The notes beneath the pieces were generated by a model. It was given only the letters and a program-made list of their open reading frames with translations. It ran no database searches and had not been told where the DNA came from. Positions 1 to 5,961 of a stretch of 5,961 nucleotides of DNA are shown here, piece by piece; position 1 is the first letter of the stretch; each line of letters begins with the position of its first letter. A program made the translations under genes and the position numbers. Source of the DNA: a virus (lineage: Duplodnaviria > Heunggongvirae > Uroviricota > Caudoviricetes); IMG/VR virus record IMGVR_UViG_2657245112_000002, positions 1 to 5,961 of that record. One strand, given 5' to 3'.

Positions 1-8
1 CTCAACAA

Positions 9-156
9 TGAATTTTGTGATGCGGTGCCTGGTGCCTCCAGGTGACGTTAACCAGTTAACAATTAACGCCGGATACAGAGAATCCACCCATAACACTGTT
101 TTTGGTTTTAACTGTTCCGCGTGCGCTGAGCCGCATTCACCGCATCACAAAATTCA
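9..156. repeat. 19-bp perfect inverted repeat pair (9-27 and 138-156) flanking a 110-bp spacer with nested palindromes
   Basis: tgaattttgtgatgcggtg at 9-27 is the exact reverse complement of caccgcatcacaaaattca at 138-156. The spacer holds palindrome cctgg-tgcct-ccagg (28-42) and GTTAAC-ca-GTTAAC-aa-TTAAC (47-65). Function unknown. Confidence 0.8.
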
Positions 157-558
157 CTTTTAAAAAAGGGCGGCAGAGCAGTCACGGAGTAAAACTGATA
201 CCGCCAAATGTCACCAGAATATTGATAACAGAGGGCGTTGTAGCGGGGTTGTCACTTAAGCGTATGGTCAACCTGACAACCCGGTGTCCTCAACTGGGGA
301 AGGAATAACCCCGCCATACTTACCGCCGCGCCATTTCGCGGAGTGCCACAACCGGAAGCGCACGTTCGAAGAAATCTAACGACAAGCCTTCTAAGGGAAA
401 GAGCTTCGCCGTACGCTTTCGCGTTATGCCCTGACTTTTCAGGGAAATATCCTTTCAGTAAACTGTCAGTACCGGATTCTTATCCGTGTCCGGCGCACGA
501 CCACACGTGACAGCGTGTTGGTCTCCATTTTTAACCCAGAACCTCAATGGAGGATAAA

Positions 559-768
559 ATGCCAAACAAAAAAAGAAATCCGCTTATTGAAAAACAGATT
601 GAATGCCTGGTAAATCAACTCAGGCAATCAGGGTTATTAAAAACTCATTCAGAGTTGAGGCTCACAGAATCAGCATTCGACGATAAATTAAATAATGTCC
701 TTTATAATGGCATTATTGATTTTAATCGTTCTGTTGGTCGCCGCGGCCCTGCTGGTGTTTCCTTATAA
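559..768 (+). CDS. hypothetical small protein, 69 aa (73 aa if the ATG at 547 is used)
   Basis: ORF-track frame 547..768. GGAGGA at 549-554 lies 4 nt upstream of ATG 559; stop TAA 766-768. AT-rich like the neighbouring 216-aa gene. No motif recognised by eye. Confidence 0.4.
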   Translation: MPNKKRNPLIEKQIECLVNQLRQSGLLKTHSELRLTESAFDDKLNNVLYNGIIDFNRSVGRRGPAGVSL

Positions 769-1419
769 TTACCAGTCAATCCAGAGTGGACCGTGTTCAG
801 CGTAAATATAACTGTACACATCCAGATTATATTTGTGGTCTGTTAAGAACAGGCCGCAAATACATGCCGAAGCTTCCAGTGCAGCGGCTCTGTTACTGAA
901 TAACCATGTAGCAACATTCCAGCGTTTTTCTGCATCCCAGTCTTTCTCAAGGCCTGATACCATGAAGAAACCGTTAGTGTTGCCATCAAATAATTCTGTT
1001 TCCAAATTTTTAAGCAATGCCTGATGGACTCTTGCCAGGTATTCCGCCGGAATTTCGCCACGAATTCTGATGAGATTGTCATAAACAAACATGTTCCCCG
1101 CATATGGCGATTTTTCTTTCTTGTTTTTTAAACCAGCATCATGAGCAAACTGATCAATTTCTTCTTCCGTTGGTTTCGTATTGATGTTTTGCGCTGTCGT
1201 TTCTGCAATTTTATTTGCCACACTCTCTGAGTCGTGTTTATTTATAGACGCACAGAAATACAATCCGGTAAACGCATCGCGCACATTACGAGCCATATTA
1301 TCAGTGTCTTTTTTCGTTACCGATTCCAATTCAAGTTCGTTCAGACGATGACGAAGTGTGTGTGCTGCAATCTCCTGGATTGAAGGAGGTAAATCTTTAA
1401 ATTCCATCGTCAACCTCAT
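769..1419 (-). CDS. hypothetical protein, 216 aa (212 aa from ATG 1407); unknown function, candidate prophage cargo/defence protein
   Basis: Longest ORF on the minus strand here. ATG 1419..1417 overlaps the TAA of the upstream small gene (TAATG); alternative ATG 1407..1405 is preceded by GAGG with a 6-nt spacer. Sampled stretches are about 35-40% GC versus about 60% in a sampled stretch of the DnaC-like gene. Hydrophilic; no catalytic motif recognised by eye. Confidence 0.75.
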   Translation of the reverse strand: MRLTMEFKDLPPSIQEIAAHTLRHRLNELELESVTKKDTDNMARNVRDAFTGLYFCASINKHDSESVANKIAETTAQNINTKPTEEEIDQFAHDAGLKNKKEKSPYAGNMFVYDNLIRIRGEIPAEYLARVHQALLKNLETELFDGNTNGFFMVSGLEKDWDAEKRWNVATWLFSNRAAALEASACICGLFLTDHKYNLDVYSYIYAEHGPLWIDW

Positions 1420-1571
1420 TAGTCGGAGTTTCTTGCTAACCAGCGATGCGCGCCAGCTTCGGTTTTAAACGATTTGCTTTTGGTATACGTCATGGCGGTG
1501 AATGTGCCGTCCTGATTGGGAAACACGCCACATACCAGAGATTCGTTGTTGCCAAGATCGATAGTATCCAT
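1419..1571 (-). CDS. small prophage protein, 50 aa, YdaF/DUF1391-like (family assignment from memory)
   Basis: Below the ORF-track size cutoff; found by manual translation: MDTIDLGNNESLVCGVFPNQDGTFTAMTYTKSKSFKTEAGAHRWLARNSD. ATG 1571..1569 is preceded by GAGG with a 5-nt spacer; stop TAA 1421..1419. Resembles the ~51-aa small proteins found near the repressor in E. coli Rac-like prophages. Confidence 0.55.
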   Translation of the reverse strand: MDTIDLGNNESLVCGVFPNQDGTFTAMTYTKSKSFKTEAGAHRWLARNSD

Positions 1572-1756
1572 GTTGACCTCATTTACCCTTAACGCCGGGT
1601 CGCGGAACTAAAAACCTGCTGCGCTGTTATACAAAGTGTTCCCGCCGTCATGTTCATACGCCTCGGGCTGGCTACTTAACCCCTGACCACTGCCGGGTAA
1701 CTCGAAGTATTGCCCTGCGTTCTGTTGAATGGGGTGGGTTGGTGAAACAAGGATGC

Positions 1757-1794
1757 ACTTTTAAAGTTATTATGTCAACACTTATAAAGTTAGG
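1757..1794. promoter_or_regulatory. putative left operator/promoter: two operator-like palindromes flanking a perfect TTGACA on the minus strand
   Basis: ACTTTtAAAGT at 1758-1768 is identical to the 11-mer at 2822-2832 in the repressor/cro intergenic region. A one-mismatch copy ACTTAtAAAGT lies at 1782-1792. Minus-strand TTGACA at 1778..1773 sits between them; the matching -10 is weak (CATCCT). Confidence 0.4.
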
Positions 1795-1802
1795 TTGTGA
1801 GC

Positions 1803-1829
1803 AACAAAAACCGCCTCGAGATGAGACGG
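1803..1829 (-). terminator. intrinsic terminator downstream of the ParE-like toxin gene
   Basis: Minus-strand RNA CCGUCUC-AUCUC-GAGGCGG forms a 7-bp stem (one G-U pair) with a 5-nt loop, followed by UUUUUGUUG. The hairpin begins 13 nt after the toxin stop codon. Confidence 0.5.
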
Positions 1830-1842
1830 CCCTGTGAAAGGG

Positions 1843-2130
1843 TTAGTTCTGCTTGGGGAATTGGCGTCTGGCGTGTACTACACTCACGATCTCAATGCTT
1901 AAAGTGGCTACACGGTAAAGAATTATATAGTTAGGGTGAGCTACAATCTCACGCAAGCCAGGTACTCTGTCGCTTGGTGGGTATAAATACGGGTGTTCGG
2001 ATAACGGCAGCACACACCCCCTTAATCGCTGCCATAAGCGTTCTGCCGCATCTATGTCGAAACGAGCAATATAACTAGTTATATCATCTAGGTCGGTATC
2101 TGCGCTTTCAAGCCATAACACGGGTAACAT
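1843..2130 (-). CDS. parE2: ParE/RelE-superfamily type II toxin, 95 aa (ParE2-like)
   Basis: Sequence pattern typical of ParE toxins (…DLDDITSYIA…LREIVAHPNYIILYRV…IEIVSVVHARR). Start ATG 2130 lies 3 nt after the antitoxin stop, with GGAG inside the antitoxin 3' end. Symbol assigned from locus architecture, not exact sequence recall. Confidence 0.85.
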   Translation of the reverse strand: MLPVLWLESADTDLDDITSYIARFDIDAAERLWQRLRGCVLPLSEHPYLYPPSDRVPGLREIVAHPNYIILYRVATLSIEIVSVVHARRQFPKQN

Positions 2131-2133
2131 TTA

Positions 2134-2322
2134 CTACTTACTCCGTTCCTTGCGCATTTTAGCAAAGCGTTCTGCCATTCTGCGCTCAACCTCGTCATGG
2201 GGAATTGCTGGGCGCGGATTTGCAAGGCTCGCTGCTACTTTCGCACGCAGCCATTCGTTGTAACTGTTTTCTTGTTCAATGGTTTCGAACTCAGAAACCA
2301 TTGGTGAAAGGGCCGTATTCAT
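2134..2322 (-). CDS. paaA2: small antitoxin, 62 aa (PaaA2-like partner of ParE)
   Basis: The ORF track extends this frame to 2385, overlapping the repressor. The internal ATG at 2322..2320 is preferred: GGAGG lies 7 nt upstream and the repressor stop is at 2352-2354. Small, charged, immediately upstream of the toxin. Confidence 0.7.
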   Translation of the reverse strand: MNTALSPMVSEFETIEQENSYNEWLRAKVAASLANPRPAIPHDEVERRMAERFAKMRKERSK

Positions 2323-2351
2323 GGCACACCTCCGTCTGTGTATGGTGGTCA

Positions 2352-2759
2352 TTATGCTCGATGCCCTTTCCGGGCAGCGAGCCATCTTTCAATTGTGCGC
2401 TCCATTAACTCTTTTTTGTCTTTCATCTCCTGAAGCATTTGTCCCTGTTCTTCCTCTGGGAATGCACCAAATGTCTGAAGTAGCTCTCTTTGCTTCGGAC
2501 CTATTTTCATTGTGTCAGGTACCACAATCTGTTCGTCCTCACTTGGTGGCAACATAAACCAATATGGAGGGAATCCTGTTACTTCAGAAAGTTTATCAAG
2601 ATTAGCCATTGATGGGCTTGTGATGCCATGAACCCACTTTTGGACCGATTGTTGGGCAACACCTATTCTGCGGGCTAGTTCTGCTTGCTTAAGCCCTGTT
2701 TTTTCCAGCACCAGTTTTATCCGGTACGTGGTTATTTCAAGAGTGGTCATTCGCTTCAT
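2352..2759 (-). CDS. paaR2: XRE-family HTH transcriptional repressor, 135 aa (CI-like prophage repressor and TA regulator, PaaR2-like); no S24 peptidase domain
   Basis: N-terminal HTH signature (…LKQAELARRIGVAQQSVQKWVHGITSPSMANLDKLSEVTG…). The ~60-aa helical C-terminal tail is too short for a LexA-type autocleavage domain. Divergent from the Cro-like gene, first gene of the repressor-antitoxin-toxin operon. Confidence 0.8.
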   Translation of the reverse strand: MKRMTTLEITTYRIKLVLEKTGLKQAELARRIGVAQQSVQKWVHGITSPSMANLDKLSEVTGFPPYWFMLPPSEDEQIVVPDTMKIGPKQRELLQTFGAFPEEEQGQMLQEMKDKKELMERTIERWLAARKGHRA

Positions 2760-2866
2760 GCATTCATTTTACACAAAAAAAGTGTAGCCAGCACAATCAG
2801 CTTGAAAGTGTTGATAGTGTAACTTTTAAAGTGTATAAGTGGTGTCGATTGATTGGAGTTAGCGAT
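2760..2866. promoter_or_regulatory. divergent promoter/operator region between repressor and Cro-like gene (right operator equivalent)
   Basis: Rightward promoter candidate TTGATA (2811-2816), 17-nt spacer, TATAAG (2834-2839), then GGAG 2855-2858 and ATG 2867. Palindrome ACTTTtAAAGT (2822-2832) lies in the spacer; AAGTG-type half-sites recur at 2806-2810, 2829-2833 and 2838-2842. Leftward candidate: -10 TAAAAT (minus, plus coordinates 2771..2766) only 6 nt before the repressor ATG. Confidence 0.5.
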
Positions 2867-3145
2867 ATGCATAAATGTTTAAAAAATAAAATTCGCCAAA
2901 TAGGGTTATCCCAAGCGGGTGTTGCTCGCTTGATTGGGTTGCCACAGCAGGTTGTATGTCGATGGGTTAATGGGCAACAGGTCCCTGCATCAAGGGTTTT
3001 ACAACTATGTGAGATTATGGCGTGGACTGTCACCCCCCACGAGCTCCGACCAGATATTTACCCTAACCCAACCGATGGCCTGCCTTGTGGACGTAAGAGT
3101 ACAGCGAATGAATTACTGGCGGTGAACAATGAAAATCACACCTGA
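2867..3145 (+). CDS. ydaS: Cro/YdaS-like HTH DNA-binding protein, 92 aa
   Basis: ORF-track frame 2831..3145 starts at GTG. ATG 2867 is preferred because GGAG at 2855-2858 precedes it. HTH signature (…IGLSQAGVARLIGLPQQVVCRWVNGQQVPASR…). Divergent from the repressor. Symbol by position and family, not exact recall. Confidence 0.7.
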   Translation: MHKCLKNKIRQIGLSQAGVARLIGLPQQVVCRWVNGQQVPASRVLQLCEIMAWTVTPHELRPDIYPNPTDGLPCGRKSTANELLAVNNENHT

Positions 3146-3650
3146 ACAGGTTTGCGAGGCTCTGGATGCCTGGGTATGCAGACCAGGAATGACGCAGGAG
3201 CAGGCGACGATATTAATTACTGAAGCCTTCTGGGCTCTACAGGAACGCCCGAACATCGATGTTCAGCGTGTCACGCTTGATGATGGCGGGGTTGATCAGC
3301 GTGCGCTTGGCGTTAACCGGGTGAAGATATTCGAACGCTGGAAGGCTATCGACACCAGGGATAAGCGTGAAAAATTCACGGCGCTGATTCCGGCAATTAT
3401 GGAGGCTATCCGGATTAGTGATTTCAGGTTGTACCGCGAAATTACTGACGGAAAAAGCATTACGTACATGATTGCCGGGTTAAACAAAGAATATGGCGAT
3501 GTGGTGGAGTCCGGGCTGCTTTTTGCAGATCCAGCTGTTGTGGAACGTGAGACAGACGAGCTTATAGAAAAAGCAATCGCTTTCAAGCGTGCCTATCGTC
3601 ACCAGTACCAACAAAAAGCCGGATGGAATTATGAGCCTTCTTTTTGCTGA
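3129..3650 (+). CDS. ydaT: YdaT-like protein, 173 aa (proposed CII functional analogue)
   Basis: Overlaps the Cro-like gene 3' end by 17 nt. Occupies the cII position between the Cro-like and O-like genes, as in Rac/CP-933P-type prophages. Assignment is by position and size, not exact sequence recall. Confidence 0.6.
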   Translation: MKITPEQVCEALDAWVCRPGMTQEQATILITEAFWALQERPNIDVQRVTLDDGGVDQRALGVNRVKIFERWKAIDTRDKREKFTALIPAIMEAIRISDFRLYREITDGKSITYMIAGLNKEYGDVVESGLLFADPAVVERETDELIEKAIAFKRAYRHQYQQKAGWNYEPSFC

Positions 3651-4608
3651 ACGCCCGCTGGTTATAAACACACAGCTGGCGATGAAGATTGGTTTAAACG
3701 AAGCCATTGTGTTGCAGCAACTGCATTACTGGTTGAGGGATACCAGTTCCGGCATGGAATGTGATGGCGTTCGCTGGATTTACAACACAACGGAACAATG
3801 GCTGGAACAGTTTCCGTTCTGGTCAGAGTCAACGTTAAAGCGTGCGTTTGCAAGTCTGAAAGCGCTGGGGCTTTTGCGTAGCGAAAAGCTCAATAAATCG
3901 AAGCGTGATATGACTAATTTTTACACAATTAACTACGATAGCGCGCTTTTAGATGATGGCAAAGTGAACGAATCCATCGGGTCAAAATGCGCCACTCCAT
4001 CAGGTCAAAATGACACGATGGAAGAGGTCAAAATGAAACGTTCCATTGGTTCAAAACGGCCCAATGTCATCAGGTCAAAATGGCCCGATGATCCTACAGA
4101 GAATACAACAGAGAATACAACAGAGAATACAACAGAGAATAAAAAACTCTCTTGTCCGGACGCTTCGCAACCGGACGAGTTGACGGCTGAACAGGCGTTT
4201 TTAACCCGCCATCCTGATGCTGTTGTGTTCAGCGTGAAAAAACGCCAGTGGGGAACCCGGGAGGATTTGACATGTGCGCAGTGGATCTGGGGGCGGGTTG
4301 TAAACCTGTACGAACAGGCTGCCAGCGACGATGGAGAGATCACGCGACCGAAAGAGCCCAACTGGACGGCGTGGGCCAATGACGTGCGCACAATGCGGAT
4401 GCTGGATGGAAGAAGTCACAGACAAATTTGCGAAATGTTCAGCCGGGCACAACGGGATCCGTTCTGGATAAAAAACATCAAGAGCCCGGAAAAACTCCGT
4501 GAGAAATGGGATGAACTGGTTATTCGACTGTGGCGTGGTCCCGCGCAGCGTTGCGTGAATCATATTTCTGAACCGGATACCGAAATTCCGCCGGGTTTCA
4601 GGGGGTAG
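3631..4608 (+). CDS. replication initiator, lambda O-like architecture, 325 aa from ATG 3631 (339 aa from GTG 3589)
   Basis: Lies immediately upstream of the DnaC-like loader. Contains tandem DNA repeats in its central linker (…TENTTENTTENTTEN…), as oriLambda lies inside gene O. Start ATG 3631 overlaps the YdaT-like gene end by 20 nt. Stop TAG 4606-4608. Confidence 0.8.
   Translation: MSLLFAERPLVINTQLAMKIGLNEAIVLQQLHYWLRDTSSGMECDGVRWIYNTTEQWLEQFPFWSESTLKRAFASLKALGLLRSEKLNKSKRDMTNFYTINYDSALLDDGKVNESIGSKCATPSGQNDTMEEVKMKRSIGSKRPNVIRSKWPDDPTENTTENTTENTTENKKLSCPDASQPDELTAEQAFLTRHPDAVVFSVKKRQWGTREDLTCAQWIWGRVVNLYEQAASDDGEITRPKEPNWTAWANDVRTMRMLDGRSHRQICEMFSRAQRDPFWIKNIKSPEKLREKWDELVIRLWRGPAQRCVNHISEPDTEIPPGFRG
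3978..4093. repeat. five direct iterons, 23-24 bp period, core GGTCAAAATG (putative origin initiator-binding sites)
   Basis: Core at 3980-3989, 4003-4012, 4026-4035 and 4073-4082, with degenerate copy GGTTCAAAACG at 4048-4058. Units also share CCAT/TCAT at their 3' ends. Confidence 0.6.
4096..4143. repeat. four tandem 12-bp repeats ACAGAGAATACA (three perfect, fourth ACAGAGAATAAA), A-rich; putative unwinding element
   Basis: Directly visible perfect tandem repeat. It encodes the TENT repeats of the O-like protein and is followed by aaaaaa. Confidence 0.9.
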
Positions 4609-4614
4609 CGCATC

Positions 4615-5355
4615 ATGAAAAACATTACGTCAGGTGGTGTTCTGGCAAGAGTCAGCAGATTTGTGCCGCAGGATGCAATCCCTCCGTACCGTACGGTGAC
4701 GGAGTGGCGGGAATGGCAGCTTGCTGAAGGGCGTAAGCGAAGCGAGGAGGTTAATCGTCTGAATCATCAGACGCGGGTTGAAAAAATCATTAACCGCTCC
4801 GGTATCCAGCCGCTTCACCGGAAGTGTACGTTCGGTAACTACCGGGTGCAGAACGATGGTCAGCGCCATGCCCTGAGTCAGGCGAAATCCATTGCGGCAG
4901 AGCTGGAAGGCGGCTGTACGAATTTTGTGTTCAGTGGCCGGCCTGGCACAGGAAAAAACCACCTGGCGGCGGCTATTGGCAACCACCTTCTGGCGAAAGG
5001 TCGCAGTGTGATTGTGATAACAGTGGCGGATGTGATGCTGGCGTTACATGGCAGCTACGACAACAAAAACTCGGGCGAAAAATTTTTGCAGGGATTGTGT
5101 GGCGTTGACCTGCTGGTACTGGATGAAATTGGCATGCAACGGGATACGCGTAATGAGCAGGTCACGCTGAATCAGATTGTTGACCGCAGAACGGCATCGT
5201 TACTCAGTGTGGGGATGCTGACAAATCTTAACCATGCAGCGATGAATACACTTCTCGGCGAGCGGGTGATGGACCGCATGTCCATGAACGGTGGTCGCTG
5301 GGTGACGTTTAACTGGGAGAGCTGGCGTCCGAACGTCAGCCAGCACAGGAACTGA
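4615..5355 (+). CDS. DnaC-like replicative helicase loader (AAA+ ATPase), 246 aa
   Basis: Walker [18 protein letters not shown] and Walker B LLVLDEIG. Collinear similarity to E. coli DnaC as recalled (…NRSGI.PLH..C.F.NYRV…GMLTN.N…[10 protein letters not shown]…). GGGGG at 4601-4605 precedes ATG 4615 and overlaps the O-like stop. Confidence 0.9.
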
Positions 5356-5384
5356 GAAGTAATTTTTATCCGGAGGAAGTTTTA

Positions 5385-5961
5385 ATGGAAACCGTATTGC
5401 ATGCACTGAAAGCGATGGGTAAAGCCAATTCTGTTGAACTGGCGGCGCGGCTTGATATCAGCCGTGAAGAAGTTCTCAACGAACTGTGGGAACTCAAAAA
5501 AAATGGCGTTGTTGATAAAACGGGTCACACCTGGTTTCTGGCTGGTGAAGGTGAATCCGGGGTAACCGAAGAGCAGCCAGCACAGTCTGAAGTACCGGAT
5601 GTGCTGACCGGGGAGGTCGAACAAAAAGTTACCGCGGACATGATGATTGAGTTTATCTGTCAGGATGGGGCTAAAACGTGTGAGGAACTGGCGGATAAGT
5701 TCGGTGTTAGCATTCGCAAGGTTGCTTCCACGTTGGCGGTCGTAACAGCAACGGGGCGCCTGGCACGCGTAAATCAGAACGGTAAATTTCGTTACTGCAT
5801 ACCGGGCGCTGATTTACCGGCAGAGCCGGAAGCTGCATCCGTAGCGGAAACCGATGGTAAAGCCTTTCCTCAGCCAACAGGTGTTGCGTTACCAGTCCAG
5901 GAAACGACGACACAGGAAGAAATAAAAACTGAAAGTGTGGCGGTCACAGTGCAGTCACAGC
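5385..5961 (+). CDS. hypothetical protein, partial (3' end beyond window), two tandem winged-helix-like repeats
   Basis: Not in the ORF track because it runs off the window. ATG 5385 is preceded by GGAGGA (5372-5377); no in-frame stop to 5961. Translation begins [43 protein letters not shown]…; a second similar segment reads [42 protein letters not shown]. Confidence 0.6.

Follow-up and report, generated by a model that had tools for sequence, protein, structure and literature searches.

A replaceable convergent gene pair between ydfA and dicF in the early-left operon of a Qin/Rac-type prophage of Shiga-toxigenic Escherichia coli

What does a prophage carry in the stretch between the first gene of its early-left operon and the small RNA (sRNA) DicF, and are the genes found there partners or just neighbours? 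The question is raised by the IMG/VR virus record IMGVR_UViG_2657245112_000002, of which positions 1 to 5,961, here called the window, were analysed. The window covers the early region of a prophage that is lambdoid, of Qin/Rac type, and from Shiga-toxigenic E. coli (STEC); over positions 400-1800 it shares 99.9% identity with the chromosome of strain 2012C-4227. A first-pass annotation had pointed to an AT-rich block of three open reading frames (ORFs) as accessory, compositionally distinct cargo of the early-left operon, close to the immunity region but not within it, and in that it was right. The cargo is, though, differently bounded: positions ~506-1418 are one allele, here termed type A, of a replaceable convergent two-gene cassette. 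Its anatomy is well supported, namely a hypervariable left-operon cassette, a conserved plug-in junction, and a conserved pair made up of the C-terminal domain (C-domain) of the larger gene product and a small protein. As to what the pair does, a defence or exclusion function is no more than plausible. The features on which the argument turns are as follows.

559-768, plus strand: gene for a soluble protein of 69 amino acids (aa), convergent to the operon (phrog_4274, PHROG match 1.4e-51; WP_001133037, a RefSeq coding sequence call)
769-1407, minus strand: ORF of 212 aa, 'Ybl81' (phrog_2151 in PHROG; WP_001473525 in RefSeq; also supported by its own-frame selection, below)
1258-1407, minus strand: N-terminal helical module (N-module) of the 212-aa protein, aa 1-50, MEFKDLP...NVRDAFTGLY, common to the cassette alleles examined
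772-1113, minus strand: C-terminal alpha/beta domain of the same protein, aa ~99-212, which travels with the 69-aa ORF
544-561, plus strand: cassette junction TCAATGGAGGATAAAATG, with Shine-Dalgarno (SD) sequence GGAGG at 549-553 and ATG at 559-561 (three-way DNA alignment and IMG/VR 18-mer scan)
472-552, plus strand: conserved structured leader of three hairpins, H1 472-493, H2 500-522 and H3 523-552 (RNAalifold)

Are the two ORFs genes at all? The three ORFs originally listed are all there, at 1571..1419 (minus), 1419..769 (minus) and 547/559..768 (plus), with the starts of two of them refined. For the ORF first given as 216 aa the second ATG, at 1407, is the likelier start, giving 212 aa, because it stands behind an SD of the form GAGG-N6-ATG, because phrog_2151 and RefSeq start there, and because all homologues begin MEFKDLP; the plus-strand ORF starts at 559 (69 aa), behind GGAGG-N5-ATG. 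Their stops abut in TAATTA (766-771). Among type A alleles the 69-aa ORF has a ratio of nonsynonymous to synonymous polymorphism (pN/pS) of 0.27 and the 212-aa ORF one of 0.55 and, since for each it is lowest of the six frames in its own, both are coding: they are real genes under purifying selection. That they might be untranslated, which had been allowed for as a way in which the whole idea could fail, is answered by the same result.

With what can the cassette be compared? In the dicBF operon of the K-12 prophage Qin (ydfA-ydfB-ydfC-dicF-dicB-ydfD), dicF is processed out of a polycistronic transcript, and DicF and DicB are both toxic to the host (PMC5069750). Read alongside it, the minus strand of the window has three features to add.

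1419-1571, minus strand: DUF1391 protein, homologue of YdfA/YdaF (Pfam PF07151)
220-505, minus strand: dicF-precursor region, untranslated and conserved, bordering the variable cassette on its left in alignment with K-12 Qin
168-219, minus strand: DicF small RNA (Rfam RF00039, collinear with K-12 dicF)

The likeness to Qin extends to gene order and flanks, with a DUF1391 gene first, dicB downstream and a promoter that is probably repressor-controlled, and leftwards of ~505 the dicF-precursor untranslated region (UTR) and DicF are near-identical in the two. The 50-aa ORF matches PF07151 at 100.9 bits (cut-off 27.3) over 48/48 profile positions, and its gene has ~93% DNA identity to K-12 ydfA. 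DicF matches RF00039 over its full length at 77 bits (gathering score 48, E=2.7e-16); it lies downstream of ydfA on the same strand and comes from the operon transcript that also codes for the 212-aa protein. Further on, just outside the window, is dicB, which in L001, the locus with 99.9% identity, is annotated 564 nucleotides (nt) past the cassette, so that from the leftward promoter PL the order runs ydfA (DUF1391), cassette, DicF, dicB. The difference lies in between. The place of ydfB and ydfC in K-12 is taken in the window by the convergent genes of 212 and 69 aa, i.e., the stretch between ydfA and dicF has been replaced by unrelated sequence with the remainder collinear; also, K-12 Qin keeps hairpin H1 but is missing H3, the SD and ATG junction and any plus-strand ORF. 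Because only the ydfA-to-dicF stretch differs from K-12, the DUF1391 ORF is backbone and the cargo is 506-1418: that gene is the conserved first gene (ydfA/ydaF) of an early-left operon of dicBF type, outside the cassette, and the block thought to consist of three ORFs is left with two. The early-left accessory context had been seen correctly, but its dicBF setting, with DicF at 219..168 on the same strand and dicB beyond, had been missed. Directly downstream of DicF, and leading to dicB, is a stretch nearly identical to K-12 (14-154, minus strand) with a sub-threshold match to STnc100 of Rfam, 37.4 bits vs a gathering score of 47.

The AT-richness on which attention was first focused is real in direction, though not in size. 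The GC content of the span originally noted is 41.5%, against 49.3% for the rest of the window; that of the truly variable part, 506-1418, is 40.7% and that of the 69-aa gene 37.1%. The O-like replication gene has 49.2% and the DnaC-like gene 54.0%, and no 300-nt window exceeds 57%, so that the contrast is one of ~41 with 49-54 and not of 35-40 with 60. GC at third codon positions is 0.30 and 0.385 in the cassette vs 0.51-0.61 in the ydaT-like and replication genes. At 47.7% the 50-aa DUF1391 ORF, which had been placed inside the AT-rich block, falls outside it by composition as well.

Where does one cassette stop and the backbone resume? When the window is aligned with prophages of O104:H4 and of O157:H7 strain 2571, the DNA is conserved through TCAATGGAGGATAAAATG and unrelated beyond, and both of those loci have a gene with the same ~50-aa N-module and then a small opposite-strand ORF. 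On the right the boundary falls inside the 212-aa gene, just after the N-module. A scan of IMG/VR for the 18-mer of the junction gave 119 loci, with a few other matches in unrelated contexts. In the dicF context four unrelated families of plus-strand ORF begin at the junction ATG, each of them tied to one opposite-strand C-terminus.

Type A: plus-strand ORF of 69 aa, opposite one of 212 aa; 3′ ends abut (0 nt)
Type B: plus-strand ORF of 64 aa, opposite one of 112 aa; 12-nt 3′ overlap
Type C: plus-strand ORF of 61 aa, opposite one of 52 aa that is N-module only; 29-nt 3′ overlap
Type D: plus-strand ORF of 80 aa, Cys/His-rich and read as zinc-ribbon-like, opposite one of 186 aa; 44-nt 3′ overlap

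The type A block was counted in 566 of the 5426 complete E. coli genomes, for the most part STEC, and ~300 E. coli genomes match the N-module part only. Cys-rich proteins with CPxC...C/H motifs, also read as zinc-ribbon-like, are encoded on the convergent strand in some alleles of the slot (L198 3523-4158, minus strand; L004 2394-2579, plus strand). They are of 61-80 aa, besides a longer form of ~172-211 aa that looks like coiled coil, and in L198 the Cys-rich gene goes with loss of the 69-aa gene, the 212-aa-type gene being kept.

If alleles are so freely exchanged, is anything within the type A cassette held together? An exhaustive HMMER search of 1.84 billion representatives gave 35 relatives of the 212-aa protein, all enterobacterial and mostly sharing the N-module only (P0133 was rejected as a relative, being a low-complexity artefact). 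Two of them, P0139 and P0143, have the C-domain only, behind a different N-terminus and, in P0139, an HTH_3 domain as well; the possibility that the Salmonella N-terminus is a diverged DUF1391 was tested and rejected. On their contigs the order is int, C-type repressor, Cox, C-domain protein and then an opposite-strand ORF of 64-69 aa overlapping its 3′ end. Those belonging to P0143 and its relatives, for which the sources give the name Salmonella enterica, carry a P2-type int/C/Cox switch. Between Salmonella and the window the C-domain is 28-39% identical and the small ORF 42-53%, with the motif IEKQIEC..QL..SGLLK and the tail GRRGPAGVxL common to the small ORFs of both. Where there is room downstream, 80 of 84 C-domain loci carry the small ORF, and it is always convergent. 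The C-domain and the 69-aa protein are, then, a conserved pair, travelling together even into Salmonella prophages. Whether the block travels as a unit, a question raised at the outset, is answered by yes for these two and by no for the three ORFs together. A scan of one genome per species gave no C-domain, and IMG/VR gave close alleles only. When 50,697 phage records were searched at the DNA level and by tblastn, neither gene turned up at full length, the one match being the N-module, at 42% identity, in Shiga toxin (Stx) phages. There (Escherichia phage PA2, L005 5001-5444, and ~70 other records) the N-module heads a 147-aa protein, encoded in the early-left accessory region without a convergent partner ORF. 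Neither in the Salmonella loci nor in L198 and L206 was there a DicF match at the gathering threshold.

RNAalifold, run on 20 distinct sequences, folds the leader into its three hairpins. The invariant H3 pairs CUCCAU with AUGGAG, because of which the SD of the 69-aa ORF is sequestered. The stem of H2 is maintained by two-sided changes between E. coli and Salmonella, with a G-U intermediate seen from L055 to L045; in the Salmonella loci the leader is recognisable upstream, with H2 rebuilt from different sequence. Preference for one strand is limited, as paired cells and G-U pairs favour the plus strand only slightly. A full-length leader is present in at least 904 of the 5426 complete genomes. 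In the loop of H2 (505-517; compare L003, L012 and L056) some alleles have TGACAG and others its reverse complement CTGTCA on the same stem, and the small hairpin appears to have been inverted as a whole. The leader is also found away from dicF. In L011 6601-6930 (also L017 and L077), part of another lambdoid prophage, whose repressor has 229 aa, ~75 nt of leader with the SD and ATG junction head an unrelated 75-aa ORF. This ORF, too, runs convergently to the left operon, and it would seem that the leader is a portable module for expression.

Just upstream of H1 there is a candidate promoter.

436-464, plus strand: putative weak sigma-70 promoter of the plus-strand ORF, TTTTCA-17-TAAACT, 8/12 matches (from reading of the sequence)

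At the same place L011 has a good TTGAGA-17-GATAAT. In a promoter scan the candidate at 436..464 was below threshold, and counts were not above those of shuffled controls; the only plus-strand match that the scan gave near the ORF overlaps the start codon and was rejected.

Can the proteins themselves be recognised? Neither the 212-aa nor the 69-aa protein has a match in Pfam or NCBIfam, and their PHROGs are of unknown function only; PHROGs 1363, 9419, 6937 and 33007 match just aa 5-55/79 of the 216-aa form. The AlphaFold2 (AF2) model of the 212-aa protein, of mean predicted local distance difference test (pLDDT) 66, has four N-terminal helices followed by a C-terminal domain of b-b-a-b-b-a-b topology (b, strand; a, helix), and Foldseek with it found nothing at E<=1e-3. 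The best matches of the C-domain, to the cysteine protease Prp / YsxB / TM1457, were weak (E 3e-3 to 2e-2) and obtained on a model of that pLDDT; when E. coli C-domains are aligned with those of Salmonella there is no invariant Cys or His, and hence no conserved catalytic Cys-His dyad, so that it is not a protease of Prp type. A Noc/ParB-like match to a PDB profile (aa 8-92, E=0.04), otherwise unsupported, was put down to noise. For the 69-aa protein there was no PDB profile match, and its AF2 model, a low-confidence helical hairpin (pLDDT 57), was too poor for a fold search. The conserved GRRGPAGVxL tail is predicted to be disordered. The small protein is basic, with an isoelectric point (pI) of 9.7, whereas that of the 212-aa protein, at 5.2, is acidic; with maximum Kyte-Doolittle hydropathy over 19 residues of 0.22 and 1.16, respectively, neither has a membrane segment. 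That no motif was recognisable in the larger protein, as originally remarked, is therefore upheld by profile and fold searches without a confident match, and the same goes for the smaller. A match of the 50-aa ORF to AbiEi in PADLOC (E=0.016) was taken as chance. In the literature on DUF1391, ybl81, KilS and dicB/defence hotspots we found nothing on the cassette genes.

When would the two genes be expressed? For this the immunity region has to be considered. The annotated gene order of L001 begins with int, xis, exonuclease, DUF1482 protein and dicB, and continues with two hypothetical proteins, DUF1391 protein, ParE, a hypothetical protein of the PaaA2 family (Pfam) and a helix-turn-helix (HTH) repressor; rightward of it are a transcriptional regulator, a YdaT-family protein and replication genes. 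Pfam domains among the window's ORFs are DUF1391, ParE, PaaA2, HTH_3, YdaS, YdaT and IstB/DnaC-like. The immunity-region module itself (1843-2759, minus strand) comprises the 135-aa HTH repressor, a PaaA2-type antitoxin (62 aa in the RefSeq call vs 83 aa as longest ORF) and the ParE toxin. Two features follow it.

1803-1829, minus strand: intrinsic-terminator-like hairpin and T-run, end of the repressor-PaaA-ParE transcript (read from the sequence)
1753-1791, minus strand: early-left promoter/operator region, analogue of PL (TTGACA and palindromes, inverted match to the rightward promoter PR)

The hairpin, CCGTCTC-ATCTC-GAGGCGG and then TTTTTGTTG, is a stem-loop with T5 just past the ParE stop; a consensus scan did not list it on the minus strand. 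TTGACA at 1778-1773 lies between ACTTTTAAAGT / ACTTATAAAGT palindromes at 1757-1767 and 1780-1790, and the rightward promoter has this palindrome too (2822-2832). As it is shared within a 31-nt inverted match (81%) between 1753-1783 and 2806-2836, each with a TTGAC/TA -35 and the same palindromic operator, these are the PL/PR pair of the prophage. Both the terminator after the toxin-antitoxin genes (1829-1803) and the operator-like palindromes had been correctly noticed at the outset. The arrangement is that of CP-933P (Jurenas et al. 2021, PMC8630535), where a lambdoid immunity region has a CI-like repressor joined to a PaaA-ParE toxin-antitoxin and, next to it, a PL analogue whose operators resemble those of PR. 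In CP-933P, PaaR2, YdaS and YdaT are analogues of CI, Cro and CII, and PL933P, downstream of parE2, is repressed ~100-fold by PaaR2 and YdaS (PMC8630535). The operator half-sites differ, being ACTTTTAAAGT here vs a consensus of GTTTAGTAA in PMC8630535, and for that reason the window may have a different immunity type. By analogy with PL933P, the 212-aa gene would be silent in the lysogenic state.

For the small gene the analogy is with another prophage. In K-12 Rac the order is racR, ydaG, ydaF (DUF1391), the opposite-strand sieB, the sRNA KilS and kilR, and in locus L211 sieB (3172-3660, plus strand) overlaps ydaF (3657-3812, minus strand) by 4 nt. There too a DUF1391 gene in the early-left operon is followed by a convergent gene, an sRNA and a cell-division inhibitor, the counterparts of the latter two in the window being DicF and dicB. 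The slot that the 69-aa gene holds in the window is held in Rac by sieB, annotated as encoding a superinfection-exclusion protein, and 559-768 (plus strand) abuts 769-1407 (minus strand) near the DUF1391 gene. The position had been described as equivalent to that of N and sieB. Because Rac has the same architecture, with sieB convergent to ydaF and overlapping it, the sieB half of this is right for the plus-strand ORF; an N equivalent there is not. The likeness is one of position only: similarity to SieB was not detectable in the 69-aa protein, which also lacks a Pfam match and any hydrophobic segment; Pfam, NCBIfam and PADLOC gave no SieB similarity for either protein, and upstream of sieB the Rac region is without the H1-H3 leader or the junction.

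What might such a pair be for? The 212-aa protein would be made only once the CI-like repressor releases PL. The small protein would be made independently of PL, most likely in the lysogen, like sieB in the Rac slot, and its ORF would need its own promoter, for which the weak TTTTCA-17-TAAACT at 436-464 is the best candidate. Since the stops abut, the PL transcript has to cross the whole 69-aa gene in antisense to reach dicF, and expression of the two genes should therefore be mutually antagonistic; convergent transcription could in this way make the two prophage states mutually exclusive. The small protein may then be a phage-conflict factor of the lysogen, acting by exclusion or abortive infection, and the C-domain protein its cognate early-expressed partner, which would either confer self-immunity or modulate the lytic development of the prophage itself. 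Prophage defences with cognate self-immunity, in which a lysogen-expressed factor and a lytic-phase countermeasure are encoded in one locus, provide a precedent in design, as do convergent type I toxin-antitoxin loci, in which two transcripts overlap at their 3′ ends. To neither is there a sequence or fold relationship, and both window products are soluble. That the locus encodes a small conflict factor of the lysogen and its early-expressed cognate, serving phage-phage conflict, we advance tentatively, at a little short of an even chance. The complete proposal goes further: that the C-domain and 69-aa proteins form an undescribed two-component phage-conflict system, with its halves wired to opposite states of the switch by convergent transcription, and that the slot, with its SD and ATG and its SD-sequestering leader, is a plug-in expression site for at least four unrelated pairs. 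Taken all together this is unlikely to be right in every part.

Several findings count against a conflict system. There is no homology to a known defence, exclusion, toxin or antitoxin family in PADLOC, Pfam or NCBIfam, and in PADLOC-DB 2.0.0 neither protein has a match even at E<=1; the folds of both are generic or of low confidence. The products of all four plus-strand ORFs are soluble, which does not suggest a membrane-acting exclusion protein. The plus-strand promoter is weak, and known by inference only. Pairing is not obligatory, as 4 of the 84 C-domain loci are without the small ORF (in the exceptions L198, L203 and L207 the small gene is deleted and another gene lies further on), and in type C the opposite-strand protein is the 52-aa N-module without a C-domain. 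In seven type A loci of IMG/VR the small ORF is frameshifted, the 212-aa gene being intact in five of these, and a few loci show the reverse, with the small ORF intact and the 212-aa ORF not. Co-inheritance could result simply from zero intergenic distance and, as the leader and part of the UTR are shared too, the Salmonella segment may be one contiguous ancestral block and no separate evidence for coupling. The frameshift in the seven loci is at an A7 run (568-574), where a 1-nt deletion cuts the 69-aa ORF to 17 aa; it could be sequencing error, decay or slippage-based switching.

The main rival takes up several of these points. It is that the two are independent accessory ('moron') genes, uncoupled and with separate, unrelated roles (the early protein might, e.g., serve host takeover and the small one lysogenic conversion), that are kept together by compactness and conserved recombination sites. 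Stops that abut or overlap leave no room for recombination between the genes, and the four unpaired loci, type C, the partnerless N-module proteins of Stx phages and a Salmonella segment that may be a single inherited block all fit. What it accounts for less well is that the pair has persisted to 28-53% protein identity through a period in which the larger gene changed its N-terminal half for another, and that all four types keep both the convergent, 3′-overlapping design and one-to-one pairing. On this balance we consider it somewhat unlikely.

Next is the possibility of something like a toxin and its antidote, the 212-aa protein being a growth-inhibiting, PL-expressed effector comparable to Kil or DicB, with leaky expression in the lysogen neutralised by the small protein, the antisense transcript or both. 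The neighbourhood is suggestive, DicF and DicB being host-toxic (PMC5069750). Also in keeping with it are the complementary charges of the two proteins and the small one's conserved disordered C-terminal tail, a possible binding motif or degron, and the convergent 3′-overlapping design is like that of type I loci. That geometry is the only similarity to type I, as a small hydrophobic toxin is missing, and type II was rejected too, the genes being convergent and not co-directional and neither having a toxin or antitoxin family or fold. No toxin motif was found either, and it is hard to see an antidote in a protein whose ORF is frameshifted or absent in loci where the 212-aa gene is intact. The operon's toxicity in K-12 does not come from the genes upstream of dicF, though these are different genes. 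Overall an antidote is improbable.

Could the proteins be secondary? If the function were mainly regulatory, the plus-strand promoter, leader and transcript would act in antisense as an insulator, reducing the read-through that reaches the toxic dicF-dicB from PL. The PL transcript must indeed cross the whole plus-strand gene in antisense, the leader with its SD and ATG is far more conserved than the ORFs after it, and unrelated ORFs fill the slot. Yet a pN/pS of 0.27 speaks for purifying selection on the 69-aa protein itself, that protein is conserved in Salmonella, and K-12 Qin has dicF and dicB but manages without H3, the junction or a plus-strand ORF, all of which makes mere insulation highly improbable. 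That the ORFs are spurious, just open and untranslated frames in AT-rich spacer DNA, might be thought from the absence of known domains in both proteins and of full-length matches in 50,697 deposited phage genomes, but is hardly credible given lowest own-frame pN/pS, a strong SD ahead of each, a PHROG family and RefSeq coding call for each, and distant homologues that keep ORF length.

Elsewhere in the window, at 4096-4141, the O-like replication gene contains a perfect 12-nt tandem repeat, ACAGAGAATACA, in 3.8 copies, encoding TENTTENTTENT. The repeat resembles iterons, and the origin of replication may lie there, as in lambda O.

Why should one slot of one operon merit attention? Prophages of the Qin/Rac type are among the commonest elements of E. 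coli, and their left operon yields DicF, DicB, KilR and SieB, all of which act on cell division or phage susceptibility. Function-unknown ORFs downstream of PL were noted in the CP-933P study, and what is seen here is the form that they take across prophages: the stretch from ydfA to dicF is a defined swap-in slot with a conserved translation-start junction and a structured leader. If it is true that plus-strand transcription of the slot limits read-through, that would bear on the silencing of the toxic dicF and dicB. The slot is, moreover, a concrete and cheap place in which to seek prophage exclusion and self-immunity pairs, and one conserved pair in it is now singled out.

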